Positions 5,545-21,830 of a DNA stretch of 32,000 nucleotides are shown here, piece by piece (within the stretch, counting starts at the first letter, position 1; each line of letters starts with the position of its first letter). This DNA comes from Candidatus Cloacimonadales bacterium (GTDB lineage: Bacteria > Cloacimonadota > Cloacimonadia > Cloacimonadales > JAFGVF01): contig OY762964.1 of the NCBI GenBank assembly GCA_963667035.1, positions 2,786,097-2,818,096 of the forward strand, written 5' to 3'. A model generated the notes under the pieces. The model saw only the letters and a list, made by a program, of their open reading frames with translations. It made no database searches and was not told the DNA's origin. The position numbers were made by a program, and so were the translations under genes.

Positions 5545-6216
5545 ATGAAACGTTTGTTAATGATTATAACAGTATTGTATTTAATGTTATCAGGCTGTAC
5601 TGAAGACATAGATAAGATTGACTATACTATGCTTGAAGATGAAATATTCTTTCAACTTGATGAGATTTACAAGAATCCAGAATTGGAGAAAAATATTCCT
5701 AATGATAATTTCGAACATCTCTTAAGTCAGAAAAGAGTAAAACTGTTTTCAAAAAGATTTGAAGCACTCCAAAAAGCAAACAACAAAATTGGTGCATTTT
5801 ACGAGGAATACTACTACAATAGATTTGGTGAACTATTCGGAAATAACTATCCTTTAGAAAGCTATGAGCTGAAATCCTTTGTGAGACTTAGGGAATCAGA
5901 ACTTGGTTTGGCTGAATATGATAATGTTACTGAAGCAGTAGTTGCAGAAGAAACAAAGAAAGACTTCGAGACAGGACATGCAGAGTATAGGCTCGAGACT
6001 AATGATGAATATGTTGTTTACATGACTACTGACGATAATACTGTTTTTAGAGATGATGAAAACTATTATTATACCGGACACATATATTTTGGTGGAATAC
6101 CTAATCCGGTAGGCATGAGAGTAAGAATTCACTATAACAACATATCTGTGTATGACGAAGACAATGAAAAAGTAATCAAAGCATTATTAATAGAGCAACT
6201 TGACCCTAAAAAATAG
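5545..6216 (+). CDS. Hypothetical lipoprotein
   Basis: 223 aa with N-terminal signal and lipobox (MKRLLMIITVLYLMLSGC), preceded by GGAGG RBS. No recognised domain. Confidence 0.8.
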   Translation: MKRLLMIITVLYLMLSGCTEDIDKIDYTMLEDEIFFQLDEIYKNPELEKNIPNDNFEHLLSQKRVKLFSKRFEALQKANNKIGAFYEEYYYNRFGELFGNNYPLESYELKSFVRLRESELGLAEYDNVTEAVVAEETKKDFETGHAEYRLETNDEYVVYMTTDDNTVFRDDENYYYTGHIYFGGIPNPVGMRVRIHYNNISVYDEDNEKVIKALLIEQLDPKK

Positions 6217-6238: not shown

Positions 6239-7702
6239 TTACTCTTTAAAAACTGCTTTCAATTCAGGATTGTTAGGATCAATAGCCTTTGCTATTTTCC
6301 AATTATCGTAGGCTTTTTTACTATCTCCCATTCTGTAGTATATGGAACCTAACTTGATATAGGCTAGAGCCATATTGGGTGCTAAACGGATTGCTGCCTT
6401 GCACTCTAGAACAGCTTCTTCAAGCTTGCTTTGATAGTAGTATTTAGTTGCTTTAGTTATATGAATCAAAGCTTCATTTAAGTCCTTGTAATCCTTTAGC
6501 TCAAGCCGAACTGCATCAAGCTCTTTTGATTTTCTTAAATACTCATCCGTTGAAATGCCTGTAAACACTTTAAGTGTGTCTACGACATAAATAGTATCTT
6601 TGATAATCTTCTCAACTTCAATATAAAGAGTGTCCATTGAAACCGGTTGCATTGACTCAACAACCTTCATAGGTTCTCTGATAATTTCTCTTTGAACTCT
6701 TGGAGGTATATGAGATGCAAGTTTATATTCCTCTGTTGTTGAATTACCGAGTTTAACTTCAAGTCCAATGAAGTGATTGCCATATGGAATCTCTAAATCA
6801 GAAAAGAGGGGGTAACTAAAGCCGTAATCAAGAGAAAGGTCTATTGATTTGGTATTTATCATTTCTCTATTGTTTAACGGATTTCTATACTTCTGAATAT
6901 ACTCTTTCCGTAGAACTAATAGACCTAATCCAAAACTCATTTCATTGTTATTTACACCACTTCTAAAAGCTAGATTTTCAGTAAGTCTATATTCTGTGCC
7001 TAATGAATACGTAAAATCATTGAAGTCTTTTTCCTTGTAGCTGTTGTACGTTACATCAGAGGCTATTAACCATTGAGGAATAATGTTATACGTTGCACCT
7101 AATCCAAACTCTCTTGGCAGGGCATCATCTGCCTCTATTGCTAACTTTGTTTGAAATATATTCCTACTAACAAATCCCATTTGAAAACCGGTTGAGACCA
7201 GATATGCTACCCCGAAGTCCATATCAATAGCGGATTTACTTGTGTCATTGTTCACAAAGAAAGGATCATTAGCTGTATATTCATTTGTTCCGTAGTCGAT
7301 GTTATATAGATTAAGTCCAAAACCAGCTTTCAGTTTGTCACCAAATAGATACGAACCAGCATGAAGGCCTACATGGATTTCGTTATATAAATCCGATTGG
7401 AAAATAGATGAACTGAATGCCGTACTGAATTGATTGCCAATAGGGATTGTTAGAATAACAGCATTGTAATCCAAATTGTCGTTTTCGATACCATAAAGAT
7501 ATGCTCTATTATCTGTTAATAGCGAGAAGTCACTCAAATGAGCCAGTAAAGCAGGATTATAGACAGAAGCAGAACCATCATAGGATTGAGAGATTCCTGT
7601 TTTTCCCATAGAAAAATTTCTTATTCCGGCTTTCTCAAAAGTATAAGCTATTAGGTTAGAAATGATAAACAAAGCAGAAATTATTATTACTATTCTTTTC
7701 AT
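6239..7702 (-). CDS. PorV/PorQ-like (UPF0164/FadL-like) outer-membrane beta-barrel protein with C-terminal TPR region
   Basis: Start trimmed from 7723 to the ATG at 7702 (MKRIVIIISALFIISNLIAYTFEKAG), which has GGGAGG just upstream. N-terminal region has YNPALLA and aromatic beta-strand periodicity. C-terminal TPR-like motifs (YYQSKLEEAVLECKAAIRLAPNMALAYIKLGSIYYRMGDSKKAYDNWKIAKAIDPNNPEL). Confidence 0.75.
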   Translation of the reverse strand: MKRIVIIISALFIISNLIAYTFEKAGIRNFSMGKTGISQSYDGSASVYNPALLAHLSDFSLLTDNRAYLYGIENDNLDYNAVILTIPIGNQFSTAFSSSIFQSDLYNEIHVGLHAGSYLFGDKLKAGFGLNLYNIDYGTNEYTANDPFFVNNDTSKSAIDMDFGVAYLVSTGFQMGFVSRNIFQTKLAIEADDALPREFGLGATYNIIPQWLIASDVTYNSYKEKDFNDFTYSLGTEYRLTENLAFRSGVNNNEMSFGLGLLVLRKEYIQKYRNPLNNREMINTKSIDLSLDYGFSYPLFSDLEIPYGNHFIGLEVKLGNSTTEEYKLASHIPPRVQREIIREPMKVVESMQPVSMDTLYIEVEKIIKDTIYVVDTLKVFTGISTDEYLRKSKELDAVRLELKDYKDLNEALIHITKATKYYYQSKLEEAVLECKAAIRLAPNMALAYIKLGSIYYRMGDSKKAYDNWKIAKAIDPNNPELKAVFKE

Positions 7703-7712
7703 CACTTCCTCC

Positions 7713-10700
7713 CTACTTTGCAACCGTTATTGTGTTTAGATGAACTTTGCCATTAACTTTTACCTGACACAGATAGATTCCCGGAGAAACTAATTTCCCA
7801 CTTTGATTTACTCCTTCCCAAACTGCTGATTTGCAGTTATAAGTCTGATTAGTTTCAGGATTTATATAATTGTATGTGCTACAGGATAACTTCTTAACCT
7901 TCTTACCACTACGATTAAAAACTATACAATCAACCTTATCATTCTGAGAATCAACCGGGATTATTATGCGAGCCTGATCGTTGTAACCATCCCAATTAGG
8001 AGTTATTATATCCGGTATTACTGTTACTCTATCAATATCAGTATTTTTAAAAATGTTTATCGAGAACTGAGCCTCAGCTCCTAATGGTTCAGGCTTTGAT
8101 TTATCATGGGCCGCAATATCAATACTTAATTGTTGTCCCTCATAGTAATAGTTATCAATTATATAAGTTAACAGATAGCCTAAAGAATCAGGATTTGAAT
8201 TATAAGTAGAATTATCAAGATTAAAACTGTTTATGTCTCGGTTGTTAATTTTAAGACTAATCGAGGTTGAGTCTATTCCAGTTCCTTTATCTAGGATAGC
8301 TATTTCTAAAGACTCATTAATCTTAATTTCGCTTTCAGGATATTTAAGTATAAAATATGGTTCAAACTCATCCTCTATTAAGTTAAAACTATACTTATCT
8401 TCAAGAAGATTACCTATATTATCAGCAATAGAATATGAGACTTCAACGGTTTCAGCCCCATTCAAATCATCTGTAATATAGCGTATTTTACACCCATTGT
8501 CTGATAACTCTGTATAAAAATCAAAAATCGGTGTACTATTGATGTTGAAGGAAATGTTGTTTGGATTAACACCGGAAAGGTCATCGTAAAAGTGGAGATA
8601 TATAAGAGAGAAAGGATATCCAAACTCTCCTTCGGCAGGATTAGACATTACAAGATAAGGAGGATCAATATCATTGATTGTAGTAAAGTGGTAATTAATG
8701 CTAGCTTCATTATGATTTGAAGAGTTGTCTATAGCATAAATCTGAATATTGACTGTCTGATTATAATTGAATTTTGATTCCGGTGTGTAGAGAATGGAGT
8801 AACCTGTTGCTTCATTTTCTATAACTTCCTCAATCAGATAATCCTCAATCTGTTGATTATTGATATTAAATAGGATGGAGTTTGGATTTACTCCTGTTTC
8901 TGTATCCATGATTCTGAAAGATATAGAAGTATCAATAGGTATTCCAATGCTTTGTTGAGCAGGATTAAAGCTTTCAAAATACGGTGGAATCATATCATCA
9001 TCTGCAACTACAAAACTAAAATTATAATTAGAGAGTGAATTAGGTATCGGAGCAAGGTCGGAAACAGAAACAACTATTGTGACAGTTTCACCATATTCAT
9101 ACGGCTCATGATTCCATGTAATCCTATAATTACTTTCATTTTCTATTTGCTCTGTTACAGGTATAATCTCAACGTTATTCTCATGAATAACTAAAGAATT
9201 AATATCCACACCTAATCCTGAATCATGAATCTCAAATGACACATTCTCTGTTGCCGGAACTCCAATATCATTATTCTCCGGATGTAAGTTGCTAAGAAAC
9301 GGTGGTTCAATATCAGGTATTACTCTAAAAGAGTATGAAGTATCCATAGAATTGGGAACAGAAGCCAAGTCTTCACAAATAACTCTTACTGTAACCCATT
9401 GGTTGAAATCAAAATTGACACTTGATGTGTATAGAACATCGACTTGCTCTATGGTTTCATTAACTATTATGTACTCGGTAATATCATTTTCATTTATATA
9501 TAATCTAACGGATTTAGGATTGACACCGGTTAACTCGTCTTTCAAAGATAAGGTAATATCTGTATTAGGCAATACGTTTAACTCTTGGTCTGCCGGTGAT
9601 GTTGAAGAAATGTATGGTGTTCCCAAATCTTGAATACAGGTAAAAGTGTATTCTTCCATATTCATAACATTTGCAGGTATATTATAATCTGATGCATTAA
9701 TTTGTACTGTGACAATATTGCTATAATAGTTCTCAGGAGTATGAGAGATTCTATATCCATTTGTGATTTCATCTACCTTTGTTGAGTTCAATCCAATAAT
9801 CTCTACTCCATTAATTCTAATAGAGACGGTTTCTAAATCAATTCCTGAAAGAGTATCAATAATATCTACACTAAATGATGTGTTTTCAGGATTGTCCATA
9901 CTGAACTTCTCCGGATGATGATTCATAGTATAAGGAGGTTCCAGATCAGCTTCTACAGTAAATACGGAAAGAGTATCGATTGAATTTTTTAATGCAGACC
10001 TGTCTTCAATATAAAAGTGTATTAAATGTTCTCCAATCTCAAATATATTATCTGGCATTGGATTCCATGATAATCTTATTCCTTTATCACTCTGAATAGG
10101 TATTATCTCAGTTTCATTGATAATTGAATTGTTATCAAGCTCTAGGATTAGGGAATCTATATTCAAGCCTGATTCATAATCGACAATCTCTATGGTGACG
10201 GGATGATTTCTTGCAATTACTTCCTCATAGGTTGGATCAATATACAAAATAACTGGAGATGAAATATCCTCTAAACATTGAAAAGAGTAAGCAAAAGTAC
10301 TCATAGCATTCGGACTTTCAGCAAAATCAGAAGCACTAATTAAAACATTTACCGTTTGTTCATAAGCGAAGTTTGCTGAGGGATTGATTTCGATAAAGTA
10401 ATCGTTAGGAGTTCCATAATAAGAAAATTCAGAATCATCCTGAGTATAAATATTCCCATCAATATTGACTTTGATAGTAGATAAATCTACTCCTTCACCT
10501 AAATCTAAAATATGGAATGATATATTTGTATCTACACTTACGTCAGTATCTCCCGGAGCCGGATTCCATGTACTAGTATAAGGAGGATCCGTATCCTGAC
10601 GAGTAAAAAAACGATAAGCTGTTGTAGGAATTGTGAAGCCATCATTATCATTCGCTACAACAGAGACATCAATAACTTGATTGTAACCAAAGAATTCTTC

Positions 10701-12374: not shown

Positions 12375-12448
12375 GATAACTCCTTAAAAACGACTTTAAT
12401 AAGTCCTGGAATGCATAAAGTCAAACAAAAAAAATATTAATTTTTTAC

Positions 12449-12477
12449 TTGCCACATAAAAGAGAATTGAATTTAAT
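12449..12477 (+). promoter_or_regulatory. Candidate sigma70-like promoter of the motor/EPS operon
   Basis: TTGCCA (12449-12454), exact 17-bp spacer, TTTAAT (12472-12477), then RBS GGGAGG (12489-12494) and ATG at 12500. Confidence 0.55.
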
Positions 12478-12499
12478 CCAATTATCTTGGGAGGATTGG

Positions 12500-13879
12500 A
12501 TGATAAGGAAAACTGTTATTTACTTGTTGATTATCTCTGTGCTCTGTTGTGTCGTTGAGTTATATTCAGAAACAACAAGCTCTTTAGCAGAGTTAAAAGC
12601 TGAAACTGAACTTGCAAAACGCATTGAAGACCTAGTGAAACCATTTACTGAAAAAGTTATTGTTGGAGTTGATCTTGATTTAAGATATAATCTATTTGAG
12701 ACTAACACTTCAGATTTCAAGTTCGATCCCAATATGAGCCTACCCGGTTTACCGGTAGGTAAAACAGATAATAGAATAGTTGAGAATGATCTTGAAGATG
12801 TAGTACCAACTGAAATATTAAGAAAGAAAATTAGTATTAAAGTTCCATTAGATACTTCCAAAGAAGTAATCGAATTTCTCAATCAAGAAATACATAATAT
12901 TATTACAATAGATGAGAATAAAGGGGATATATTGCAGATAACCCCTGAATCTAATCTAACCAAGTATATCCGTTCAAAGAATAACAGGTTACAGACTTAC
13001 TTTTTTCTCACCTTAATTGCAGTTATGATTTTAATGCTGAATAATATACGTAGCGGTATGAGAATAATTGCCAAGTCAATGAGAAAAATCAAAATCACTA
13101 ACCTTGAAGTTCTAAATAAATCAAAAACACCGGAGATAATTAATAATAGTACTTCTGAACAAACTCATCCCAGAATTCCTCTTGAACCTATAAAAGTAAA
13201 AGTTCTTCAAGATGAAGAAGAAGATTTGATGCCAACGAGATTCGATTTCTTAGAAGATCTTTCGGATGCTAACTTGTTAGAAGTTTTAAGAGAAGAGAAT
13301 CCCGAGGATATAGCATTTATTGTTTCTCAAATCTCTCCAGAAAAAGCAGGAGCTGTTTTCCAGAATCTAAAAGAGAATAAAGAACAAGTAATAAATGCAA
13401 TGTTAGAAAATCAATCAAAGCTGAAGCTAGACCTTAAAATCCTAGTTGTTAATTTATATAATAAGTATCTGGAAATTATGGAGAAAGAAGCAATTCAGTT
13501 AGAGGGTGTAGGTCTACTCGCAAAAATAATAAACAGTTCGGATTATGAGAGTTCTAACATTCTATATGAATCCATAAATAATCTTGATAAAGATAAGGCT
13601 AAAGAGATTGCGAAAAAGATATTCTTATTGGATGATGTCTTATTGCTGTCTAATATTCAAATTGAACAGATTTCTCTTGAATTTACTCATCTAGAGTTAG
13701 TTAAATTCTTAGCCTGTGTGAATACAAGAATAAAGAACAAATTCTTCTCTCAACTTTCGGAAAGAGCAACAATGATTTTTAAAGAGGACATAGAATCTCT
13801 AGGTAAGCTTTCGGAAGGAGAAAAGAGAGTTATATTGAATCACTCATTGAGAAAAATTCGTAATATTCTAAATTTCTAA
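12500..13879 (+). CDS. FliF/FliG-like chimeric membrane protein (signal peptide, FliF RBM-like periplasmic domain, one TM, FliG middle and C-terminal-like domains)
   Basis: Start moved from 12449 to ATG 12500 (MIRKTVIYLLIISVLCC) with GGGAGG RBS. FliF-like AKRIEDLVKPFTEKVIVGVDLDLRY...RKKISIKVPLDTSKEVIEFLNQEIHNIITIDENKGDILQI. TM LQTYFFLTLIAVMILMLNNI. FliG-like NPEDIAFIVSQISPEKAGAVFQNL and GVGLLAKIINSSDYESSNILYESINNLDKDKAKEIAKKIFLLDDVLLLSNIQIEQI...KFFSQLSERATMIFKEDIESLG. Confidence 0.8.
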   Translation: MIRKTVIYLLIISVLCCVVELYSETTSSLAELKAETELAKRIEDLVKPFTEKVIVGVDLDLRYNLFETNTSDFKFDPNMSLPGLPVGKTDNRIVENDLEDVVPTEILRKKISIKVPLDTSKEVIEFLNQEIHNIITIDENKGDILQITPESNLTKYIRSKNNRLQTYFFLTLIAVMILMLNNIRSGMRIIAKSMRKIKITNLEVLNKSKTPEIINNSTSEQTHPRIPLEPIKVKVLQDEEEDLMPTRFDFLEDLSDANLLEVLREENPEDIAFIVSQISPEKAGAVFQNLKENKEQVINAMLENQSKLKLDLKILVVNLYNKYLEIMEKEAIQLEGVGLLAKIINSSDYESSNILYESINNLDKDKAKEIAKKIFLLDDVLLLSNIQIEQISLEFTHLELVKFLACVNTRIKNKFFSQLSERATMIFKEDIESLGKLSEGEKRVILNHSLRKIRNILNF

Positions 13880-13889
13880 AAGGTTTTTT

Positions 13890-14627
13890 ATGAAAATAAG
13901 TACACTATTAGGTATAGTTTTAAGTATAGTGATTATTGTTTTTGCCATTAATGCAAAAGGTAGTTTAGTAGAATACTTTGATCCAATAGCTTTGATGGTA
14001 ACATTAGGGGGAACTGTTTCAGCTCTTTTGGCAACTTACTCGTTTTCTAGCCTTAAAGATGCAATAGAATCGTTGAAAGTAGTTTATTTTACACCGCCCA
14101 TACCGCATGACGATATGGTCGAGATAATGATTGGAGTGAGTAAGGATTCTCGTTCATTAAGTTTTATGGAAATTCAAAGCTATGAAGAAGTGCAAAATAT
14201 CCCATTTCTTAAAACAACTATTACAATGTTAGCTGATAATCTTCCCAAAGACAAAATTACTGATTTTCTTGAGTCTGAAAGTAGATCAATACTTAGAAGA
14301 AGAATTCGTTCAGCTAAGATATTCGGAGTTGCTGGAAATCTGTCACCAATGTTTGGTATGATTGGTACAGTAATTGGACTAATAGCTATGCTTGGCAATA
14401 TGAGTGATCCTTCTGTTGTCCCTAGAGCTATGAGTCTTGCTCTCGTTACAACTCTATATGGATTAATTCTATCTGTGATAATTTTTAGACCAATAGCAGG
14501 TAAGATATCTTCAGGAGCAGAATATGACTATATCAACAGAGAAATCATTATTCAAGGTATCTCAGGAATTATTGAAAAACGCAACTCGGAGATAATTAAG
14601 ACTGAGTTGACTAAAATTTATGCATAA
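13890..14627 (+). CDS. motA: MotA/PomA-type stator protein
   Basis: 245 aa, four TM pattern, DPIALMVTLGGT, LSPMFGMIGTVIGLIAMLGNMSDPSVVPRAMSLALVTTLYG. Confidence 0.93.
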   Translation: MKISTLLGIVLSIVIIVFAINAKGSLVEYFDPIALMVTLGGTVSALLATYSFSSLKDAIESLKVVYFTPPIPHDDMVEIMIGVSKDSRSLSFMEIQSYEEVQNIPFLKTTITMLADNLPKDKITDFLESESRSILRRRIRSAKIFGVAGNLSPMFGMIGTVIGLIAMLGNMSDPSVVPRAMSLALVTTLYGLILSVIIFRPIAGKISSGAEYDYINREIIIQGISGIIEKRNSEIIKTELTKIYA

Positions 14628-15276
14628 TAAAGACAACAATAAAGTTAATCAAGTTTTGTCTGATATCGAGGATAGCCTCATAAATACTCCAGACAATGAT
14701 TTCTCAGGATTTTATTCAGCTTTAGTTCCTTATGCTGATATGATGACTTTACTACTCATTTTCTTCGTTTTCTATTTTGTCATAGGAGATACAGAAACAG
14801 GGTGGAAGGCTATTGCCGAGATACAAAAGAAGAAACTTAATAACAATATCCAATCAGAATCCATAGCAGAAACTGAGATGTATGAAGGTGATATTAGCGA
14901 AAAGGTAATATCAATACCGGGGAATATCCTCTTTGAATCTGGTGAGGCAAACCTTAGATGGTTGTCTCAAGATACACTTATTAAAATTGCTATGGATATA
15001 AAGAAGATCGTTAAAGACGATGATAGCTGGCAAATTCGTATAGAAGGACACACAGACAATGTTCCTATTGCCAATAATAAATATGCTTCAAACTGGGAGC
15101 TTTCTACAGCAAGAGCTTTGAGCATTGTGAAGTTTTTTATTAGAAATGGCTACTTTACTGCAGATCAACTACAGATTATGGGGTATGGAGAATTCAAACC
15201 TCTAGTACCAAATGATACAGAAGAGAATCGAAATAGAAACAGACGCGTTGAGATTAAAATCAGTCAGAAAAGATAG
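14620..15276 (+). CDS. motB: MotB/PomB-type stator protein with OmpA-like peptidoglycan-binding domain
   Basis: 218 aa. Single TM with conserved Asp (YADMMTLLLIFFVFYF). OmpA domain IEGHTDNVPI...NWELSTARALSIVKFFI...GYGEFKPLVPNDTEENRNRNRRVEIKI. Start overlaps motA by 8 nt. Confidence 0.93.
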   Translation: MHNKDNNKVNQVLSDIEDSLINTPDNDFSGFYSALVPYADMMTLLLIFFVFYFVIGDTETGWKAIAEIQKKKLNNNIQSESIAETEMYEGDISEKVISIPGNILFESGEANLRWLSQDTLIKIAMDIKKIVKDDDSWQIRIEGHTDNVPIANNKYASNWELSTARALSIVKFFIRNGYFTADQLQIMGYGEFKPLVPNDTEENRNRNRRVEIKISQKR

Positions 15277-15284
15277 GAGGGATA

Positions 15285-16121
15285 TTGATAGATTATTATA
15301 GTTTTTGGGATATCAAAGAACCACCTTTTGAAGATAACAATGATCCTAAGTTTTTCTATAAAAGTATAGATCATTATGAAGCACTTGAAAGACTGAAGTA
15401 TGTAATTAACTCAAGAAGCATGAACATTGGACTGCTTAGTGGAGAAATAGGAACCGGAAAAACCATTACAAAAATGGTTTTGATTTCTGAACTTAAGAAA
15501 CAAAACCCACATAATGTTATTGTAAACATTAACTCATCCTTGTTCACTTTTAATGAGATTATTACAGAAATACTCTCTCAAATCATGGATATAGATCCAA
15601 TAAATTTACCAACTAAGAGATACTATTTGTTTAAGAAACTTGAAAGATATATTGAAGACGAGTTATTATACACTAAAGGATTAATTTACATATTTTTAGA
15701 TGAAGCTCAGAAGATTACTCCTAAAGACTTGGATTTACTAAAAGATTTAACTAACATTAACTATAATTATTTCTGTCCTGTAAAGCTAATGCTTATTGGA
15801 CAACCGGCTATATTGAGAAATGTGAAAAAACTTCCACAAGTTGATCAAAGAATTGGTATAAGATTTCATCTAAACAATATGAATGAGGAAGATACTAATG
15901 CATATATTGATTACAGGCTTAAAGTATCCGGATCTCAAAAAAAGATTTTTAGTGATAGTGCCCTATCTTTAGTTTATAAAAAAACTTCAGGAATTCCAAG
16001 AGAAATTAACAGAGCATGCAAAATTGCAATGGATGTAGCCTCTGCTGAAAAAGAAAGCCTCATATCAGGAGAAGTTATGGAAATGGTTTTTAATGATTTA
16101 TCTTACCATGGAAGAGAATGA
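15285..16121 (+). CDS. ExeA/GspA-like AAA ATPase (type seen with XrtA/PEP-CTERM EPS loci)
   Basis: 278 aa with TTG start and AGGAGG RBS. N-terminal FWDIKEPPFEDNNDPKFFYKS, Walker A GEIGTGKT, Walker B YIFLDEAQ, C-terminal TSGIPREINRACKIAM. Confidence 0.85.
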   Translation: MIDYYSFWDIKEPPFEDNNDPKFFYKSIDHYEALERLKYVINSRSMNIGLLSGEIGTGKTITKMVLISELKKQNPHNVIVNINSSLFTFNEIITEILSQIMDIDPINLPTKRYYLFKKLERYIEDELLYTKGLIYIFLDEAQKITPKDLDLLKDLTNINYNYFCPVKLMLIGQPAILRNVKKLPQVDQRIGIRFHLNNMNEEDTNAYIDYRLKVSGSQKKIFSDSALSLVYKKTSGIPREINRACKIAMDVASAEKESLISGEVMEMVFNDLSYHGRE

Positions 16122-18679
16122 TAATGCCTAAGAAAAGACTCTCTATTTCAAATATTAGAAGTAAGAAAAGCGAGAATGAATCAACTGAAGTTATACTTCC
16201 TGAGTTAGAAGATAATCAGGCTGATTCCGACACTAAACTTGTTAAAGAAATTCCTAAATCAGCAAACCAAGGTGATGGGAATATCGATAATCCAAGAGTG
16301 AAAACAGAAACTCAAGATGATCTAAAATCATTAAAGCATAATCCAACAGGATTTATCTCTAATCACAATGAGGAAAGCGAACCTTCGCTACTAGAATATC
16401 TTGAAGTTGGATACCGAAACAAATGGTTAATTCTAATCATTACTCTTTTGTGTATTATTGGGGCATATGTTTTACACATTAGAAAAGTTCCTTTATTTAG
16501 AACTAGAACTAAAATATTCATCCATGATGATTCAATGGAGCTGGAAGTAATTAATAATAAGCCATTCATAAAAGGGAAAATGGATGTTGCTACTTGGATG
16601 GAAATACTAAAGACTAGAGATGTCTGTAAAAGAGTCTCTGCATACATGAATAATACTATATCTCCCCAAGAAGCTAAGTTGATGATTAACTGTACTAGCT
16701 CAAAAAATGAAGAAAACATCATTTCAATCACCTCAACTAATCCTAATCCAGTTATAGCTACGGACGTTGCTAATAATTTCTATCGTGCACTTAGAGATTA
16801 TGATACGGAAGCCAACAAGCGTAACATTAACAAAACCATAGATTATCTTGAGCATCAACTAAGAGACAAAAATCACGAGCTTGATTCCTTAAACACAGCA
16901 GTAAAAGCTCTTTATGCTAATATAGATTTTAAAAACTACGGTGATAATTTGCATGAAAACTTAAAGCGTTTAAATGCTTTCAAACATAATTTAACAACTG
17001 TAGAAGTAGAGTTAGAAGCTGAGAATGCAAACATAAAAGTTTTGAACTCCAAGCTTAAAGAGGAAGATTCAACCTATATTACTGAAACAACTTATAGTGA
17101 ACCACTTAAAATTAAACTGATGAATCTTGAAGTTGATTTAGCTAGAGCTTTAACTACCTATGGGGAGAATCATCCAAAAGTTATAAGTCTACGTACTAAC
17201 ATAGCAAACATTAAGAAACTTATTTCAGATGGTGTTGAAGAAAGCATTCAAATGAGGAGTATTGGTCAAAATCCGTTAAAACAACAGATTCTAAAGGATC
17301 TCGTTGAATCTCAGACCAGGTCAATATCTTTAACCCAAAAACGTAATGCTTTGAGAAAAGTAATAAAAGAAATGGAGTTGTCTCCTAAAGATAACTCTAT
17401 GCTGGTAAATAAGCAAAGAGAGAAAGATGCTTTAATACTTACCATCACTAACCTTCAAAACCAGATTAATAAAGTCAGATTGAATGCTAACATAGATTTT
17501 AACAGAATAGTTCAATTGGAAGAGGCAACTATTCCGCAGAAACCAATTGGTAAAAATCTACTCTTAATGCTTCTTAATGGATTAGGATTGGGTGTTGCTT
17601 TAAGTAGCATCTTAGTTTTTTTACTTACTAGGTTTGATAACAAGATTAATACTATTAATAAACTTCTTCATGTTTATCCGAACATTCCTATCATAGGTAC
17701 AATACCTAGGTTCAAGTTTAGTCCTATTAAGATTGATGCTCAAACTTCTAATCTAACAGAAGAGGAATTACAGAACAAGGATTTGGTAAACAGTGTTTTC
17801 AATGAAATTGCTTTAAATTTCCGATACCTGATTCTTAACAAAAGGAATAATGCTATTGCAGTGGTGAGTTCTTTAAAAGGCGAAGGCAAATCAACTATAA
17901 CGAACTATTTAGCAGTTGCTTTAGCTAATAATAATACTAAGACTCTTCTTGTTGATGCAGATTTCTATAATCCTCAGATATCTCGATATTACAGTAAAAC
18001 TAAAGCATTCGGATTCTCCGAAGTTCTATCTGAACAAATACCATTGCATGAAGTGATAATAAATACTAAAATTGATAATCTTATGATACTGCCATCAGGC
18101 AAGTGTCCTCCAAGTGTTGGACATCTTTATCACAGTGACAGATTTAAAGAGATTATACAAGAAGTAAAGTCTGTTTGCGATATCATAATTATTGATACTC
18201 CTGCTTCAATGTATTTCCCGGAGACATCAGTACTTGTTAATGAGATGGATTGTGTTCTCCTAACTGCAAAGATGGGATTTACTACAACAATCAGTTGTAA
18301 AAAATTACTAAAGAAGATACAAATCCTAGATACCAAAATTGGGGGAGTAATTGCAAATTCAATGTTAAAAGAGGTTTTCGATAAAACCTATAGTGATTAC
18401 TACAATTATAGTTATGAATATTACTCCCGATACCATAACTACACAAACAATCAAAAGCAGAATTCTTTAACAAAACATATACCTACAGATTTGTTTAAAG
18501 TAGTAAAAAAGAAGGATAAGTTGGAAAGAACATTCTTGCAGGAAGGTGAAATTCTAGACTATGAAGCTCAATCTGAAACAAATTTCGGAAGAATAAATAA
18601 AGATAAAACCTTTGGGCTATTTCTAAAAAAATTAAAACGTTTCCTTGGTCTTGATGATGACTTTGATTTAGGAGAATAG
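16118..18679 (+). CDS. Polysaccharide chain-length determinant (Wzz domain) fused to BY-kinase (bacterial tyrosine autokinase)
   Basis: 853 aa. Wzz-like N-terminal TM (YLEVGYRNKWLILIITLLCIIGAYVL), coiled coil, P-rich TM2 (ATIPQKPIGKNLLLMLLNGLGLG). Kinase motifs VVSSLKGEGKSTITNYLAVAL, TLLVDADFYNP and IIIIDTPAS. Tyr cluster YSDYYNYSYEYYSRYHNY. Confidence 0.9.
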   Translation: MIMPKKRLSISNIRSKKSENESTEVILPELEDNQADSDTKLVKEIPKSANQGDGNIDNPRVKTETQDDLKSLKHNPTGFISNHNEESEPSLLEYLEVGYRNKWLILIITLLCIIGAYVLHIRKVPLFRTRTKIFIHDDSMELEVINNKPFIKGKMDVATWMEILKTRDVCKRVSAYMNNTISPQEAKLMINCTSSKNEENIISITSTNPNPVIATDVANNFYRALRDYDTEANKRNINKTIDYLEHQLRDKNHELDSLNTAVKALYANIDFKNYGDNLHENLKRLNAFKHNLTTVEVELEAENANIKVLNSKLKEEDSTYITETTYSEPLKIKLMNLEVDLARALTTYGENHPKVISLRTNIANIKKLISDGVEESIQMRSIGQNPLKQQILKDLVESQTRSISLTQKRNALRKVIKEMELSPKDNSMLVNKQREKDALILTITNLQNQINKVRLNANIDFNRIVQLEEATIPQKPIGKNLLLMLLNGLGLGVALSSILVFLLTRFDNKINTINKLLHVYPNIPIIGTIPRFKFSPIKIDAQTSNLTEEELQNKDLVNSVFNEIALNFRYLILNKRNNAIAVVSSLKGEGKSTITNYLAVALANNNTKTLLVDADFYNPQISRYYSKTKAFGFSEVLSEQIPLHEVIINTKIDNLMILPSGKCPPSVGHLYHSDRFKEIIQEVKSVCDIIIIDTPASMYFPETSVLVNEMDCVLLTAKMGFTTTISCKKLLKKIQILDTKIGGVIANSMLKEVFDKTYSDYYNYSYEYYSRYHNYTNNQKQNSLTKHIPTDLFKVVKKKDKLERTFLQEGEILDYEAQSETNFGRINKDKTFGLFLKKLKRFLGLDDDFDLGE

Positions 18680-19761
18680 TGAAGATAAAAAAAGATAGAA
18701 TTAAGCGTAAGCATATATATGCTATAACATATCTTTTGATTATAATAGCTACAATCATTATACTTTTATTATTACCTAGGTCATGTAGCTATTCAGGTAC
18801 TATTTATGCCGGAGTCGGAGGATGTGTTTATGATCCCGGTGTATATCCTATGTACAAAGGTATGACTTTATACGAGTTGATTCGTAAAGCAGATGGTATG
18901 AAACCTAATGCTGACTTAGATCGCTTTAATCCGGATATGATTATTGAGCCATGGGAATCATATTGTATTCCCTGCAAAATAAAAAAAGACCCTCCTGTTA
19001 AACAAATTATTGCAGAAGTAGCTCCTTATGCCCCTAAACGAGAGCTTAATGATGTAGACCGCTTCACGATTATCTATGCAGGTTTACCAAGAACTTTTAT
19101 ACTTCTAGATGTTTATCCGAATTACGGACTCATATCAGCAACACATATTCCTTGGTTTACAGCAGTACATGATTTAGTCGGAAATGTAAAGACTCTCTAT
19201 GAAATGTATTTAATCGGAGGAACTGAAGCATTGGTAAGGTCAGTGTCTGATGTTACCCAGACAAATATTGACTACTACTTCGCTCAGGATAGACCTGCTT
19301 GGATTAAATTTATTGATTATCTTGGTGGAGTAAAAGTAGACATTCCGGTTGAATTTGCAAAGCAATACAGAGTAAATAGTGGTATTCATATAATTGATGG
19401 ATACACTTCTTGGTTCTATATTACCTTTATTTCCAAAGAAATGAGAAGAATAGATTATAAAACCGGCTCAATGAATAGAATCACTCGTCAAAAACTTTTT
19501 ATGGAAGAGCTATATGCCAAATTTAAGAATCTGGATTTCTTTAGAAGTAGTCAGATTGGAAAATCCATATTAACAGATGCTGAAACGAATCTCTCTGCAG
19601 CTCAAGCCATAGAACTATCAAACAAAGTCAGGAAGATGTCTTCAAACAATCTAAAGCTTTTCACTTATCCGGGCGTTATCATTAATTATAATGGAGAGAA
19701 CTATTGGGAAGTTAATCCTATCAGATATAAAAATAAAATCTTTAATGAGATAAATAATTGA
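18679..19761 (+). CDS. SLBB-like plus LytR-CpsA-Psr (LCP)-like membrane protein, atypical active site
   Basis: 360 aa, GTG start overlapping the previous stop (TAGTG). N-terminal TM, SLBB-like GCVYDPGVYPMYKGMTLYELIRKADGMKPNADLDRF. LCP-like PRTFILLDVYPNYGLISATHIP, TQTNIDYYFAQDRPAWIKFIDYLGGVKVDIP and NRITRQKLFMEEL. Confidence 0.65.
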   Translation: MKIKKDRIKRKHIYAITYLLIIIATIIILLLLPRSCSYSGTIYAGVGGCVYDPGVYPMYKGMTLYELIRKADGMKPNADLDRFNPDMIIEPWESYCIPCKIKKDPPVKQIIAEVAPYAPKRELNDVDRFTIIYAGLPRTFILLDVYPNYGLISATHIPWFTAVHDLVGNVKTLYEMYLIGGTEALVRSVSDVTQTNIDYYFAQDRPAWIKFIDYLGGVKVDIPVEFAKQYRVNSGIHIIDGYTSWFYITFISKEMRRIDYKTGSMNRITRQKLFMEELYAKFKNLDFFRSSQIGKSILTDAETNLSAAQAIELSNKVRKMSSNNLKLFTYPGVIINYNGENYWEVNPIRYKNKIFNEINN

Positions 19762-19768
19762 GGTATTC

Positions 19769-20491
19769 ATGCGTATTATTCTTGTTACTTTACTTTTTTT
19801 AACTACATTTTCGGTATTTGCCCAACAAACTTATATTCCCCGTATGGCAAAAGATGACTTTTTTAACGGTGAAACTGATCTATCTAACATACCTGATTCG
19901 CTATTGGTCAGTACAGAAGATGAATACATTCTTAGAAAAGGTGACAGAATATCAATTTATGTAATGGATCATTTAGAGTTCTCAAAGCCTCAAATAATGA
20001 TATTACCTGACGGAAGTATTGAGTATCCTTTGATAGGAACTCTGAGAGTTGCAGGACTTAACTCTGCTCAACTAAGGGCTATTATTGAAGAACGTTTACG
20101 TCCTTACGTGACTATACCCATTGTTACTATCTATATTGAAAAAATATTCGGAGAGAAACTCAATATAATTGGCTATGTTAATGGACCTGGAGAATATCAG
20201 CTTTACGAACCTATAAGAATCACTGATGCTATTGCAATGGCAAAAGGTATTATAAACATTAGAGAAGTTAAAACTATAAGAGTTATTCGTAAAGATGGAG
20301 ACGTGTTTAACGTAAGCCTTAAACATATATGGTTTAATGATGATGATGAGACAAACTACAGAGAAAATCTTCTTCTTAATCCGGGAGATACGCTTATTGT
20401 ACCTCCTCCTCGAAGATTTAACTGGAGAATGTATACTGCAATAATTGCAACTCTATCACTTATTCTTCAGATATATATAGCTACTAACTAA
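19769..20491 (+). CDS. Wza-family polysaccharide biosynthesis/export protein (Poly_export + SLBB)
   Basis: 240 aa, signal peptide MRIILVTLLFLTTFSVFAQ. YILRKGDRISIYVMDHLEFSKPQIMILPDGSIEYPLIGTLRVAGLNSAQLRAIIEERLRPYV, IIGYVNGPGEYQL and LLNPGDTLIVPPP, with C-terminal hydrophobic helix. Confidence 0.88.
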   Translation: MRIILVTLLFLTTFSVFAQQTYIPRMAKDDFFNGETDLSNIPDSLLVSTEDEYILRKGDRISIYVMDHLEFSKPQIMILPDGSIEYPLIGTLRVAGLNSAQLRAIIEERLRPYVTIPIVTIYIEKIFGEKLNIIGYVNGPGEYQLYEPIRITDAIAMAKGIINIREVKTIRVIRKDGDVFNVSLKHIWFNDDDETNYRENLLLNPGDTLIVPPPRRFNWRMYTAIIATLSLILQIYIATN

Positions 20492-21830
20492 AGTTTTTTA
20501 TTCTTTTCATATAACTAATCGTCATAGCTAATGAAAGAATGAATGATCCTGCATCAGCAATTGGGAAACTCCACCAAACACCGTTTAACCCAAGAATTCT
20601 TGGAAGTATAAGTATGAGAGGTATCATGAACATTATCTGTCTGGCAATTGATAATACGAAAGAGGGAGCGGCTTTTCCTATGGCTTGGAAAAATGATCCT
20701 GACATTACTTGAAATCCTACTAAGAAGAAAGCTGTAACTATAATCCTAAATGCTGTTGAACCTAAAGCAAGCACTTGTAAATCAGTAGTAAACATTCGAA
20801 TCAAAAAAGATGGAATAGCTAAAACAACTAACATTCCTGTTATAGATATAATAGAGGCTCCTATTGTCGCATCTTTCATAACCTTTCTAACCAAATCATG
20901 TCTTTTCCTTCCATAGTTAAATCCTACAATAGGTTGCAGTCCCTGACCAACACCAAACATAGGCATCATCATGAATGACATAGCTCTGTTGATAACTCCA
21001 TAGGCAGCTATTGCTAAATCTCCACTATATGTTTTTAAAGTTTGATTGATAATAGCTATCAGAACGGATCCTCCAATTTGTCTTACAAATGAAGGCATTC
21101 CAATAATTATAACTTCTTTAAAAATCTGTGGATTCCATCTATATTGCTTAAACTTAAGTTTGAAAATACTTCTACCACTTATGTAATAGTAAAACAGATA
21201 TATAACTGTACATATCTGGGATATAACTGTTGCAATTGCAGCTCCTTTAATTCCCATATTAAAAACGAATATGAATATCGGATCAAGAATAATATTCATA
21301 CCTGCAGCTAATAGCATACTTATCATTGCCCATTTAGCATTACCTTCAGCTCTAACGACGTTGTTGTTGACCTGCATAAAAGTTAAGAACAAGGTTCCCA
21401 TAAAGATAACCCTCATATATTCTTTAGCATAAGGCATGATTGCCTCAGTTGCTCCAAAGACTTTTAATATAGGCTCAAGAAATAGTTGTCCGCAGATAAC
21501 AACAATTGTAGTAAAGAAAAGGACACTTATATGAATAGTATAAAGGGTTAATTCCGCTTTCTTAAAGTTATTCTCACCCAAAGAGCGGGATATAAGTGAA
21601 GCTCCTCCCATTCCAAATACGAAAGAAAATGCCATTATAGCCATCTGTATGGGGAAAGCTATTGTCAGTCCGGCTAAACCCATTGTTCCTACTCCGTGTC
21701 CAATGAAAATGGCATCAACAACATTGAAGAGGGCCATTACTATCATTCCCGTCATTGCGGGAACAGAAAGTCTTATAAGCAATCTACCAACATGTTCATC
21801 TGCTAATATATGTGTATCGTTTTGTTTCAT
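20484..21830 (-). CDS. MATE family efflux transporter
   Basis: 448 aa with 12-TM pattern. N-terminal LSVPAMTGMIVMALFNVVDAIFIGHGVG and LTIAFPIQMAIMAFSFVFGMGGASLISRSLG, later AYGVINRAMSFMMMPMFGVGQGLQPIVGFNYG. Confidence 0.93.
   Translation of the reverse strand: MKQNDTHILADEHVGRLLIRLSVPAMTGMIVMALFNVVDAIFIGHGVGTMGLAGLTIAFPIQMAIMAFSFVFGMGGASLISRSLGENNFKKAELTLYTIHISVLFFTTIVVICGQLFLEPILKVFGATEAIMPYAKEYMRVIFMGTLFLTFMQVNNNVVRAEGNAKWAMISMLLAAGMNIILDPIFIFVFNMGIKGAAIATVISQICTVIYLFYYYISGRSIFKLKFKQYRWNPQIFKEVIIIGMPSFVRQIGGSVLIAIINQTLKTYSGDLAIAAYGVINRAMSFMMMPMFGVGQGLQPIVGFNYGRKRHDLVRKVMKDATIGASIISITGMLVVLAIPSFLIRMFTTDLQVLALGSTAFRIIVTAFFLVGFQVMSGSFFQAIGKAAPSFVLSIARQIMFMIPLILILPRILGLNGVWWSFPIADAGSFILSLAMTISYMKRIKNFS

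Follow-up and report, generated by a model that had tools for sequence, protein, structure and literature searches.

Relation to described motors

In the Chlamydiaceae, bacteria thought to be non-flagellated, a shortened FliF is naturally fused to a FliG domain. The chlamydial protein has RBM2 and one other RBM, lacks a SpoIIIAG-like RBM3 and includes only the M region of FliG; it was proposed to work with the T3SS and a MotAB partner was not mentioned (Bergeron, 10.1101/023564). Engineered and spontaneous fusions of full-length FliF to full-length FliG have been described in Salmonella and Vibrio, where they form MS-rings within a complete flagellum (PMC10941966, PMC11481574). Furthermore, ion-driven motors are found in the T9SS/gliding machinery of the Bacteroidota, with the GldLM motor, SprB/RemA adhesins and SprF/PorP-like anchors (PMC8986121, PMC9143113, PMC9127263), and in the Agl-Glt/Nfs systems of Myxococcus, where Agl-Nfs moves Wza/Wzc-type exported polysaccharide during sporulation (PMC3858216).

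The locus described here lies in a window of 32,000 nucleotides from a Cloacimonadales genome. Its rotor protein is also a natural fusion, but one of RBM3 with both the M and C domains of FliG, and, unlike in the chlamydial case, a cognate stator is encoded beside it. As in Myxococcus, an ion-driven envelope motor may have been re-used to move surface material, although the Agl motor is TolQR/ExbBD-like, has no FliG-type rotor and works with unrelated partner proteins. Our literature search found no published description of the system, in agreement with an earlier sequence-only reading that had proposed an undescribed system. The findings suggest that a stripped-down core of the flagellar motor now powers something besides the flagellum.

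Organization and conservation of the locus

The sequence-only reading had delimited a block of seven tightly packed genes on the forward strand, at 12500-20491, and its coordinates and junctions (in order a 10-bp gap, an 8-nt overlap, an 8-bp gap, a 4-nt overlap, a 1-nt overlap and a 7-bp gap) matched the open reading frames exactly. The block is, however, not the whole of the conserved unit, as that reading overlooked two divergent upstream genes (6239-12374). The unit thus comprises nine genes (Table 1), and synteny of all nine extends to seven other Cloacimonadales genomes. The domain content that had been proposed was confirmed, with Pfam matches above cut-off for all seven genes of the block; the exception was the SLBB domain of the LCP protein, which remained below its cut-off (23.5 bits). 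Domain searches of the window recovered no flagellar genes other than the rotor-stator, no glycosyltransferase and no exosortase, as had been stated before. In the divergent intergenic region, a GGAGG ribosome-binding site (12489-12493) precedes the ATG at 12500 by 5 nt, and sigma-70-like and terminator signals did not rise above shuffle expectation.

Table 1. Features of the rotor-stator locus, with coordinates in the window and the evidence for each assignment.
Feature	Coordinates	Strand	Evidence
Predicted outer-membrane barrel + TPR protein	6239..7723	-	Pfam TPR_2/TPR_11/TPR_1, TraF_2, Toluene_X
Predicted surface protein (adhesin), 1553 aa	7713..12374	-	FG-GAP repeats, Big_5 Ig-like domain, CHU_C-like tail
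Divergent intergenic region, adhesin gene/motor operon	12375..12499	.	sequence read
Rotor gene	12500(12449)-13879	+	ATG at 12500; database protein has same start
Rotor protein, natural FliF(RBM3)-TM-FliG(M+C) fusion	12500..13879	+	Pfam, AlphaFold, Foldseek, PDB profile
Torque-helix segment of FliG_C, SERATMIFKEDIESLG	13757..13804	+	alignment, column counts
MotA/PomA-type stator A subunit, 245 aa	13890..14627	+	Pfam MotA_ExbB 84.5 bits
MotB/PomB-type stator B subunit	14620..15276	+	Pfam MotB_plug 29.8 bits, OmpA 66.4 bits
Cytoplasmic AAA_22 (ExeA-like) ATPase	15285..16121	+	Pfam AAA_22 51.3 bits
Wzc-like polysaccharide co-polymerase with BY-kinase	16118..18679	+	Pfam Wzz + AAA_31/ParA
Membrane-anchored SLBB-like + LCP (LytR-CpsA-Psr) glycopolymer transferase protein	18679..19761	+	LytR_cpsA_psr 51.2 bits
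Short Wza-family OPX protein	19769..20491	+	Pfam Poly_export 69 bits, SLBB_2 30.8 bits

The arrangement is more than chance, because synteny is maintained in the seven genomes despite differing flanks and because very distant relatives cluster homologues of the same proteins in other orders. In fact, the gene set recurs in two further gene orders in distant lineages, at 21-27% identity. One of these (L023) has homologues of all nine proteins, with a polyprenyl glycosylphosphotransferase (sugar-phosphate transferase) between motA and motB, and another (L018, 67% GC) has homologues of eight of the nine in a third order, together with FlbD. The remaining lineages keep the rotor, the stator and a TPR protein alone, with or without an adhesin. 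Taking the seven lineages together, the most consistent partners of the motor are the TPR protein (7/7) and a large surface protein (5/7), and not the polysaccharide genes, which abut the motor in three. The connection to exopolysaccharide genes that had been emphasized before is therefore recurrent but not universal; considering that polysaccharide genes are absent nearby in four lineages and an adhesin in two, no single output device is universal. Within 10 kb of the motor loci of the seven lineages we found no flagellar genes other than the rotor-stator. The organisms are uncultivated and known from MAGs.

The rotor protein fuses a FliF ring-building domain to FliG

The first gene of the block had been read as a FliF/FliG chimera, and structure prediction recovered both folds. 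The encoded protein starts with a signal/TM helix (aa 2-22), followed by a periplasmic RBM fold (aa 29-150; order alpha-beta-beta-alpha-beta), a second TM helix (aa ~162-196), a linker, and FliG_M (aa ~249-303) and FliG_C (aa ~336-456), both above the Pfam cut-offs. Like in the flagellar motor core, the RBM3-type fold is split by an insertion, here of low confidence (aa 64-103) and bearing the motif SLPGLPVGKT, and continues into a TM helix. An earlier AlphaFold model based on 4 sequences was poor (pLDDT 50.7); with 32 sequences the pLDDT reached 78 overall, 86-91 in the RBM core and more than 90 in the FliG part. In a Foldseek search of this model against the PDB, FliG ranked first (E-values down to 2.8e-9), the match covering the C-terminal half, and FliF RBM3, S-ring and collar entries came next for the periplasmic domain, at probability 1.00. 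The FliF part was corroborated by a profile built from the first 200 aa, which obtained only seven matches with E<=10 among all PDB sequences, six of them FliF (best E = 0.0026), colinear with RBM3 and TM2. The gene thus fuses a periplasmic RBM3-type ring-building domain via one TM helix to the cytoplasmic M and C domains of FliG, a single polypeptide taking the place of the two flagellar proteins FliF and FliG.

The residues related to torque generation are highly conserved. Alignment to solved FliG structures equates R422, E429 and D430 with R281, D288 and D289 of E. coli FliG, and these three charges are the ones that contact MotA. Among 32 representatives of the rotor family, with an overall identity of only 19-40%, the Arg at 422 is kept in 31, and an acidic residue at 429 in 31 and at 430 in all 32. 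The hinge motif IFLxED is strictly retained. Other elements of the flagellar proteins are missing. Pfam gave no FliG_N match, and the FliM-binding motif EHPQR is absent: the position equivalent to its His is not His in at least 28 of the 32 representatives, and that equivalent to its Gln is Gln in only two. With its mere ~140 aa, the periplasmic domain leaves no place for RBM1 and RBM2, which are therefore absent as well. Some members of the family carry the public annotation 'flagellar motor switch protein FliG'.

The stator is of the flagellar MotAB type

The proposal of a classical flagellar MotAB pair was borne out by profile and PDB matches, which are PomAB-like, and by the retained residues of torque generation. 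The A subunit scores best with the NCBIfam models MotP, PomA and MotA (130-148 bits, below the equivalog cut-offs) and its best PDB match is Vibrio PomA, over the full length (1.1e-32). The Arg aligned with PomA R88 is invariant in nine Cloacimonadales orthologues, and conservation is not clear for its acidic partner (E96/E97 in PomA). The B subunit has the layout of the flagellar protein, with a plug, a TM helix (PYADMMTLLL) and an OmpA-type peptidoglycan-binding domain, and matches the MotD, MotB and MotS models at 118-140 bits; the channel Asp in its TM helix is invariant across all lineages sampled.

Surface and polysaccharide partners

The TPR protein combines an N-terminal FadL-type barrel, related to PorV/PorQ/PorP of the T9SS, with C-terminal TPRs (aa ~410-488). 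The adhesin contains FG-GAP (1.2e-34) and Big_5 (3.8e-16) domains and ends in a T9SS type-B (CHU_C)-like sorting domain. For the window proteins, the PorP/PorV and type-B CTD assignments rest on scores below the curated cut-offs (PorV_fam 32.3 bits, cut-off 90; CHU_C 24.8 bits, cut-off 27; TIGR04131 19.5 bits, cut-off 35) and are suggestive of likeness; orthologues of the barrel protein match PorP_SprF and those of the adhesin give an unmarked CHU_C match. Homologues of both proteins adjoin the motor genes in lineages L014, L018, L020 and L023.

The arrangement parallels that of Bacteroidota gliding, with a power source presumably taken from the flagellar motor instead of GldLM. In both, an adhesin with a type-B(-like) CTD adjoins a PorP/PorV-like barrel, the motor is of the ion-driven 5:2 type in the inner membrane, and there is a tie to secreted polysaccharide; RemA of F. 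johnsoniae is reportedly linked to secreted polysaccharide, with wza/wzc. The locus differs in its motor, a MotAB of flagellar type that would turn a ring of FliG, and in the TPR domain of its barrel, and no Gld or Spr core genes were found in the window. Periplasmic TPR scaffolds also occur in elaborate flagellar motors, like FlcA of spirochaetes and PflA/PflB of Campylobacter. The constant presence of a TPR protein with the motor may be comparable, although the TPRs of the present family either belong to an outer-membrane barrel protein or are YbgF/BamD-like, and the TPR regions of two partners match the FlcA C-terminal model only faintly (14-18 bits, far below the cut-off of 300).

The other four proteins constitute the polysaccharide module. 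The ATPase is closest to the XrtA/PEP-CTERM-associated family (TIGR03015, 141 bits with a cut-off of 324.5) and has a 40% identical homologue in the L023 cluster. The Wzc-like protein exceeds the cut-off of TIGR01007 (112.9 versus 108 bits) and consists of a Wzz domain, a coiled coil, a second TM helix, a P-loop kinase, a Tyr cluster (YSDYYNYSYEYYSRY) and an acidic C-terminal tail, the latter being conserved, like the Tyr cluster, in an alignment of nine orthologues. Homologues of the LCP protein and, at ~40% identity, of the OPX protein are present in L018 and L023. The OPX protein, named for outer-membrane polysaccharide export, has a signal peptide, Poly_export, one SLBB domain and a C-terminal hydrophobic helix conserved in the nine orthologues.

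Proposed function and alternatives

We infer the functional reading as a whole from gene content. Most likely, the locus specifies a rotary machine, driven by ions and not part of a flagellum, whose target is a surface adhesin/polysaccharide module; that it is, more specifically, a derivative of the flagellar rotor-stator that drives adhesin movement on the cell surface has, in our judgement, an even chance of being correct. The fusion protein would form a membrane ring, like FliF and the FliF-FliG fusions, which peptidoglycan-anchored MotA5B2 units would rotate using the ion gradient. We assume by analogy that a ring forms and rotates; considering that the covalent Salmonella and Vibrio fusions form MS-rings, the natural fusion could do so too. 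The periplasmic face of the ring would then connect, via the TPR domain of the PorV/PorP-like barrel, to the giant T9SS-type adhesin, and in this lineage the presumably co-transcribed Wzc/Wza/LCP/ATPase module may supply or anchor a polysaccharide on the surface that acts together with the adhesin. The predicted output is an adhesin moved over the cell surface, i.e. gliding-like motility or active attachment.

The coupling of ion flow to polysaccharide export, as suggested in the sequence-only reading, is one of several readings and we regard it as unlikely. The ring would surround or engage the Wzc/Wza channel, rotation would aid polymerization, extrusion or winding, and the adhesin would be secondary. 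The motor and the Wzc/LCP/Wza genes do abut or overlap within one operon, their homologues cluster in two other very distant lineages, the enzyme between motA and motB in L023 is a priming glycosylphosphotransferase, and the acidic tail past the Tyr cluster of Wzc is a possible docking peptide; moreover, Myxococcus Agl-Nfs provides a precedent for a motor that moves surface polysaccharide (PMC3858216). Nevertheless, four of the seven lineages have no polysaccharide gene within 10 kb of the rotor-stator, whereas the TPR protein is always there. To our knowledge, Wzc/Wza systems in other settings function independently of an ion-driven motor.

In Caulobacter and Vibrio, the stators of the flagellum sense surfaces and thereby induce the synthesis of polysaccharide adhesins, and in B. 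subtilis EpsE, a protein of the EPS operon, acts on FliG. The module could have a sensory or regulatory role instead of a mechanical one, in which stator engagement or ring load reports surface contact or the ion-motive force and so governs how the adhesin is displayed and how much polysaccharide is made, for example via Wzc phosphorylation or nearby response regulators. Two response-regulator genes in the L023 cluster, sensor kinase, HD/GAF or GGDEF genes beside several loci and an MscS-type mechanosensitive channel gene after motB in two lineages would fit, but these regulators vary between lineages and the rotor protein carries no signalling output domain. The torque-helix charges, the hinge and the full stator, which are strictly retained, are requirements of torque generation, and we consider a purely regulatory role rather improbable.

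Some Cloacimonadota are flagellated, and the genes might be divergent but ordinary flagellar genes that by chance neighbour envelope genes and belong to a flagellum encoded elsewhere, or decaying remnants of a lost flagellum; the public FliG annotations would agree with this. We consider it very improbable, as the parts that in a flagellum hold the export gate and rod, namely FliG_N, the FliM-binding motif and RBM1/RBM2, are not present in the fusion; FliM/N, export apparatus, rod, hook and filament genes are absent from all neighbourhoods examined, and the non-flagellar partners (outer-membrane TPR barrel, adhesin, polysaccharide-export genes) stay linked through three gene orders. Decay is disfavoured by the architecture and functional residues, which are shared by at least 37 clusters at 50% identity. 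Among 179 clade-2 Cloacimonadota MAGs, motA is present in 41% and flhA, fliG, fliF and flgB in only 13-17%, making motA ~2.5 times more common than the flagellar core genes (PMC13082233, Table S8), and flagellar genes were reported in only 5 of 46 genomes (10.1101/2021.10.08.463351). Finally, a Zorya-like anti-phage system built on MotAB, to which the MotB match with the PADLOC ZorB models (72 bits) might point, is effectively refuted, since MotA matches no ZorA model and no ZorC/D/E-like gene was found with PADLOC, the flagellar MotB/MotD models give MotB roughly double that score, and the stator is paired with a FliG domain in which the torque helix is conserved.

Organization and conservation of the gene cluster

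The seven ORFs from the rotor gene to the Wza-like gene, their strand and every junction lie exactly at the coordinates that the sequence-only reading had assigned to them, neighbouring genes being either 10, 8 or 7 bp apart or overlapping by 8, 4 or 1 nt, and the domain series it had proposed was confirmed above the curated Pfam cut-offs. The longest ORF for the first gene starts from a TTG at 12449; a GGAGG sequence precedes the ATG at 12500, which is also where the database protein begins. A search for protein families across the window (GC content 34%) bore out that it contains no other flagellar gene, no glycosyltransferase and no exosortase, and Rfam and tRNA scans recovered no RNA genes from it. 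Scans for promoters and terminators yielded signals at or below the shuffle expectation and were thus uninformative on the operon structure.

Genes of the conserved block and the two divergent genes upstream
Product and domains	Position	Strand	Remark
Rotor, FliG_M + FliG_C	12500-13879	+	Pfam above cut-off
MotA, MotA_ExbB	13890-14627	+	Pfam above cut-off
MotB, MotB_plug + OmpA	14620-15276	+	Pfam above cut-off
ATPase, AAA_22	15285-16121	+	Pfam above cut-off
Wzc-like, Wzz + P-loop kinase	16118-18679	+	Pfam above cut-off
LCP protein, LytR_cpsA_psr	18679-19761	+	Pfam above cut-off
Wza-like, Poly_export + SLBB_2	19769-20491	+	Pfam above cut-off
1553-aa FG-GAP/Big_5 protein (adhesin), CHU_C/type-B-like C-terminus	7713-12374	-	upstream, divergent
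494-aa protein (TPR barrel), PorV/PorQ/PorP-like barrel + C-terminal TPR domain	6239-7723	-	upstream, divergent

Conservation of the block in relatives was corroborated by synteny in seven other genomes, all MAGs labelled Candidatus Cloacimonadales, in which the FliG-like protein is 40-68% identical. Complete chromosomes that bear the block include OY782831.1, OY829950.1, OY759729.1 and OY782499.1. The extent of the block had been underestimated: the two divergent genes upstream are syntenic as well and the outer flanks differ, so that the conserved unit comprises nine genes and not seven. The assignments of the two additional genes draw on their homologs. The C-terminus of the window adhesin scored 24.8 bits against CHU_C (cut-off 27) and 19.5 bits against TIGR04131 (cut-off 35), and its ortholog at the related locus L003 matched CHU_C at E<=1e-5. 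The window barrel scored 32.3 bits against PorV_fam, below the cut-off of 90, and the homolog at locus L020 scored 55.9 bits; the homolog at L018 matched PorP_SprF (PF11751) and reached 31.8 bits against TIGR03519, below the cut-off of 90.55. PorV/PorP-like barrels of this kind anchor type-B T9SS cargo (PMC9143113). The core of the Bacteroidota gliding/T9SS machinery (GldK/L/M/N, SprA and related proteins) is absent from the window.

Several other genes border the block. A MatE/MOP-superfamily transporter gene (20484-21830, -) with a weak Polysacc_synt match converges on the Wza-like gene, the ends overlapping by 8 nt. It is kept only in the closest relative (L005, 82% identity) and probably does not belong to the system; it could conceivably act as a flippase. 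The genes for a protein of 1104 aa whose sole match, to DUF4901, is weak (2014-5328, -) and for a 223-aa protein without a family match (5545-6216, +) adjoin the block and are not kept beside it in the other genomes. Both ends of the window are occupied by ORFs that run past it, one spanning at least 513 aa and with a membrane helix at its N-terminus (1-~1540, -) and one of at least 1189 aa with a signal-like N-terminus and internal repeated segments (~28450-32000, +).

The rotor protein as a FliF/FliG fusion

When 1.84 billion representatives were searched exhaustively by HMM, a rotor family of 37 clusters emerged at E<=1e-30; almost all have 440-490 aa and match over their full length. Word-indexed homolog searches were insensitive for this family (6, 12 and 1 matches), which is far larger by HMM search. 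The named members belong to the Cloacimonadota (five clusters) and KSB1 (one), and carry the annotations 'hypothetical protein', 'FliG C-terminal domain-containing protein' or 'flagellar motor switch protein FliG'.

An AlphaFold model built on a four-sequence alignment reached a pLDDT of only 50.7 and was not used for the fold search, whereas the use of 32 family sequences raised the value to 78. The latter model predicts an N-terminal helix (signal or TM) and a domain resembling the ring-building domain (RBM) of FliF, then a long TM helix and, beyond a disordered linker, FliG_M and FliG_C. The periplasmic domain has the order alpha-beta-beta-alpha-beta (pLDDT 86-91) and both FliG domains exceed a pLDDT of 90. 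A low-confidence insertion of 40 residues between strands 1 and 2 carries the near-invariant sequence SLPGLPV[AG]K[ST]. In a Foldseek comparison with the PDB, FliG structures ranked first, followed by the RBM3/S-ring/collar of FliF (probability 1.00, E 3e-3 to 5e-2). When a profile of the first 200 residues was run against all PDB sequences, it gave seven matches at E<=10, six of which were FliF (best 0.0026), in a colinear alignment through helix 1/strand 1 and strand 2/helix 2/strand 3 of RBM3 to TM2. Comparison of the family with a single FliF in hhalign produced a weak colinear match (probability 13.5%), and the profile search against the PDB was clearer. The FliG part matched PF14841 (30.8 bits, cut-off 25) and PF01706 (51.1 bits, cut-off 23.3), and solved FliG structures at 1.5e-20.

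The 'FliF/FliG chimera' of the sequence-only reading, for which a structural comparison of the first gene product with FliF RBM and FliG had been proposed, was therefore upheld by fold as well as by sequence. What is missing from the protein is equally specific. FliG_N, which binds the FliF C-terminus, gave no PF14842 match, the N-terminal 245 aa being taken up by the signal/TM helix, the RBM domain and the TM helix; nor was there a YscJ_FliF match (PF01514) for RBM1/RBM2, the PrgK-homology region, and the periplasmic part of ~140 aa holds a single RBM. Against the full-length FliG equivalog TIGR00207 the protein scored 75.7 bits, below the cut-off of 226.7. Profiles and predicted structure thus support a fusion of FliF (RBM3 and TM2) with FliG (M and C) that lacks RBM1/RBM2 and FliG_N. 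Given its failure in the tests for either parent (FliG_N, the EHPQR motif, RBM1/2, equivalog scores), it should be filed as neither FliG nor FliF.

The representative search also returned other non-canonical FliG architectures (P0044-P0058). P0046 combines FliM, five DUF4116 domains, FliG_M and FliG_C in one protein of 996 aa; P0044 and P0045 have FliG_M followed by two FliG_C domains; P0056-P0058 (507-537 aa) have an N-terminus of ~300 aa without assignment ahead of FliG M/C.

The torque interface and the stator

In flagella, peptidoglycan-anchored MotA5B2 units turn FliG via its torque helix. The residues involved are retained in the rotor family, even though its 32 representatives share only 19-40% identity overall. 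R422 (equivalent to R281 of E. coli) is kept in 31 of the 32, E429 (D288) is acidic in 31 and D430 (D289) in all of them. The hinge motif is likewise kept, as IFLxED, the equivalent of MFxF. The FliM-binding site EHPQR reads EENPE in the window protein; within the alignment the Pro occurs in 12/32 and the Gln in 2/32, and His falls outside the six commonest residues at its position, which cover 28/32. The loss of the EHPQ part fits the absence of FliM/N from the neighbourhoods inspected.

The MotA homolog matched PF01618 (84.5 bits) and the solved PomA of Vibrio over residues 1-240 (1.1e-32), but with 148 bits it did not reach the NCBIfam equivalog cut-off of 394 and is therefore a divergent member. 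The Arg aligned with R88 of PomA is invariant in nine Cloacimonadales orthologs and was found in six of eight lineages. At the position of PomA E96 an acidic residue is not conserved in register, with acidic residues nearby. MotB contains the plug (PF13677, 29.8 bits, cut-off 24) and an OmpA domain (PF00691, 66.4 bits), and the channel Asp within its TM helix is invariant. Judged from these alignments, the residue pattern of rotor and stator matches the outcome expected of purifying selection on torque generation.

At locus L018, a homolog of FlbD (64 aa, PF06289, a small flagellar stator-associated protein; L018:11490-11684) is encoded between the rotor gene and motA. The 10-bp gap between these genes in the window holds no equivalent ORF.

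The polysaccharide genes

The nearest NCBIfam relatives of the four envelope genes are XrtA/PEP-CTERM-type families (ATPase, chain-length determinant/tyrosine kinase, exporter), with scores mostly below the equivalog cut-offs. The Wzc-like protein matched PF02706 (33.9 bits) and TIGR01007 (112.9 bits, cut-off 108.05), and the Tyr cluster at its C-terminus is conserved in nine orthologs. Full-length Wza has three periplasmic domains and a C-terminal helix. The Wza-like protein of 240 aa has a PF02563 domain (69 bits), one SLBB domain (SLBB_2, 30.8 bits) and a conserved hydrophobic C-terminal helix, and remained below all NCBIfam equivalog cut-offs. The LCP protein matched PF03816 with 51.2 bits (cut-off 24.6).

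Past the Tyr cluster, the Wzc-like protein ends in an acidic tail, FLGL[SD]D..D[IL][ED], which is conserved in nine Cloacimonadales orthologs (18560-18676). To our knowledge this is not a standard feature of Wzc, and the tail could be a docking peptide.

Partners of the motor across distant lineages

The contexts of distant rotor-family members were inspected and compared with the window proteins by tblastn to check for homology. Contig L023 (27% identity) carries a homolog of each of the nine window proteins, all encoded on the same strand but ordered differently, with two single-domain response regulators within the cluster; a 692-aa gene with a C-terminal polyprenyl glycosylphosphotransferase (TIGR03025, 2.9e-27) splits motA and motB (L023:11434-15271; GCA_964472785.1, CAYYMH010000023.1). 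L018/L019 (21-23% identity, 67% GC) has homologs of eight of the nine window proteins in yet another order, namely Wza, Wzc, rotor, FlbD, MotA, MotB, an FG-GAP/CHU_C protein, a PorP_SprF-TPR barrel and LCP. This lineage of 67% GC is represented by ERZ23498668 scaffold_1527. In L014-L017 and L020 (29-34%) we found an adhesin homolog, the TPR barrel, the rotor, MotA, MotB and an MscS-type channel, and polysaccharide genes were absent from these neighbourhoods. In L021 and L024, finally, a rotor without the SLPGLPV motif is followed by MotA, MotB and a YbgF/BamD-like TPR protein. The gene for the MscS-type mechanosensitive channel overlaps and directly follows motB (L014:12806-13711, L017:12806-13714, L020:5401-6312), which was observed in two lineages lacking polysaccharide genes.

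Summarized by lineage, the motor is accompanied by a TPR protein in 7/7, by a large surface protein in 5/7 and by the Wza/Wzc/LCP set in 3/7, and the polysaccharide module is thus not obligatory for the motor. Nevertheless, that the same set of genes recurs in three gene orders is strong evidence that the motor, the adhesin/barrel pair and the polysaccharide module are functionally linked. The conserved gene linkage, like the domain architecture, the predicted topology and the retention of the interface residues, was computed directly. The collar-loop motif SLPGLPV occurs in the five lineages where the partner is a barrel-TPR protein and in neither of the two with a YbgF-like partner, a small-sample correlation which hints that the collar loop and the TPR domain interact.

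A possible mechanism

RBM3 of FliF drives the assembly of the S-ring, roughly a 33/34-mer. Covalent FliF-FliG fusions have been found to make rings still (PMC10941966, PMC11481574). For these uncultivated organisms we infer that the 459-aa fusion would assemble into a small hybrid of MS- and C-ring, with the stator turning it. Such a ring would have neither RBM1/2 nor an export gate or rod, and torque would have to leave the periplasmic collar by another part. The best candidate is the invariably co-encoded TPR protein, which here is fused to a PorV/PorP-like barrel and encoded beside a type-B-like cargo. The motor might thereby move or tension the surface adhesin, with the Wzc/Wza/LCP polymer in the role of a co-factor, whether slime, anchor or ligand. 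We consider a motor acting on a surface adhesin, with the polymer as co-factor, the most economical general picture and give it an even chance of being correct. That the locus represents an unrecognised class of envelope machine, in which an RBM3-FliG ring is turned by MotAB without type III export, rod or filament and passes torque across the periplasm, via the TPR-bearing outer-membrane barrel, to a surface assembly of adhesin and polysaccharide, is put forward somewhat more tentatively.

The observation of the sequence-only reading was thus confirmed and extended, and its interpretation, a reduced motor tied to polysaccharide export, was supported in part: the motor module stood and the linkage recurs in three of the seven lineages, but the polysaccharide partner turned out not to be obligatory. 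A motor that directly powers polysaccharide export seems unlikely, considering that the Wza/Wzc/LCP set adjoins it in no more than that fraction of lineages. A load or contact sensor that governs the output of adhesin and polysaccharide appears a little less likely still. Ordinary or vestigial flagellar genes are an improbable explanation. Genes for FliM/N, FlhA/B, FliPQR, FliI, rod, hook and filament were found neither in the window nor within 10 kb in the seven lineages, in other words in none of the neighbourhoods inspected, and the conservation of the residues for torque generation, with its pattern of purifying selection, argues against decayed remnants. The nearest canonical fliF-fliG cluster lies on contig L022 (27% GC). 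A Zorya-type defence can be dismissed, since MotA lacks a ZorA match, no other Zor proteins were found and the similarity to ZorB/MotB is generic only; other defence readings were likewise rejected.

Relation to known systems and to motility annotations

The combination of a motor, an adhesin/barrel pair and a Wza/Wzc-type polysaccharide resembles Flavobacterium gliding, which combines SprB/SprF-type pairs with a 5:2 motor and a Wza/Wzc-dependent polysaccharide. The nearest precedent for the fusion is a chlamydial FliF-FliG protein, which differs in having RBM2 and, of FliG, only FliG_M, and for which a MotAB partner is not mentioned (10.1101/023564). The individual parts are members or divergent members of the FliF RBM3, FliG M/C, PomAB-type stator, Wzc, OPX and LCP families. 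The motor module is a variant of the flagellar rotor-stator, and its setting may constitute a new kind of envelope machine. As far as we know, FliG and stators of the flagellar type are regarded as specific to flagella. A 2025 survey places stators that combine a torque-generating interface with a plug and an OmpA domain in the flagellar class, apart from the non-flagellar homologs (PMC12505986); the locus is a counter-example to this class in context, if not in structure. Our search of the openly accessible literature recovered no published account of FliG and MotAB in a non-flagellar system together with PorP, an adhesin or Wza/Wzc.

Here this stator type and the FliG torque helix, under clear purifying selection, occur in neighbourhoods without flagellar genes and tied to adhesin and polysaccharide genes; a torque interface retained in a context that was rearranged three times and yet conserved would surprise a specialist. 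Cloacimonadota are uncultivated and abundant in anaerobic digesters and sediments, and if the machine rotates, the system is a candidate mechanism for their motility or attachment. It would also offer a naturally minimal one-protein rotor of ~460 aa for structural and biophysical studies of torque, and a test case, as a rotor-stator without export apparatus, for theories on flagellar origin. If the proposal holds, a further ion-driven device for surface motility or adhesion would stand beside flagella, T9SS gliding and Agl-Glt, and would be living evidence that the rotor-stator can work, and might have arisen, apart from the flagellar secretion system.

Flagellar genes were reported in only 5 of 46 Cloacimonadota genomes (10.1101/2021.10.08.463351). 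In a survey of 558 MAGs, motA and motB were annotated in 41% and 40% of the 179 clade-2 genomes (mainly aquatic), and flhA, fliG, fliF and flgB in only 13-17% of the same genomes (PMC13082233, Table S8), from which it follows that about a quarter of clade 2 has stators without the flagellar core. The fusion protein was evidently not called fliG in that annotation. Part of the 'motility' signal of Cloacimonadota in this survey is probably the non-flagellar system described here, which KEGG-style calls of 'flagellar assembly/motility' from motA/motB in this phylum probably include. According to the text of the survey, flagellar assembly genes are enriched in genomes from anaerobic digesters (PMC13082233), whereas its Table S8 (Supplementary Dataset 2) shows hardly any motA/motB or flagellar core KOs outside the aquatic clade 2.
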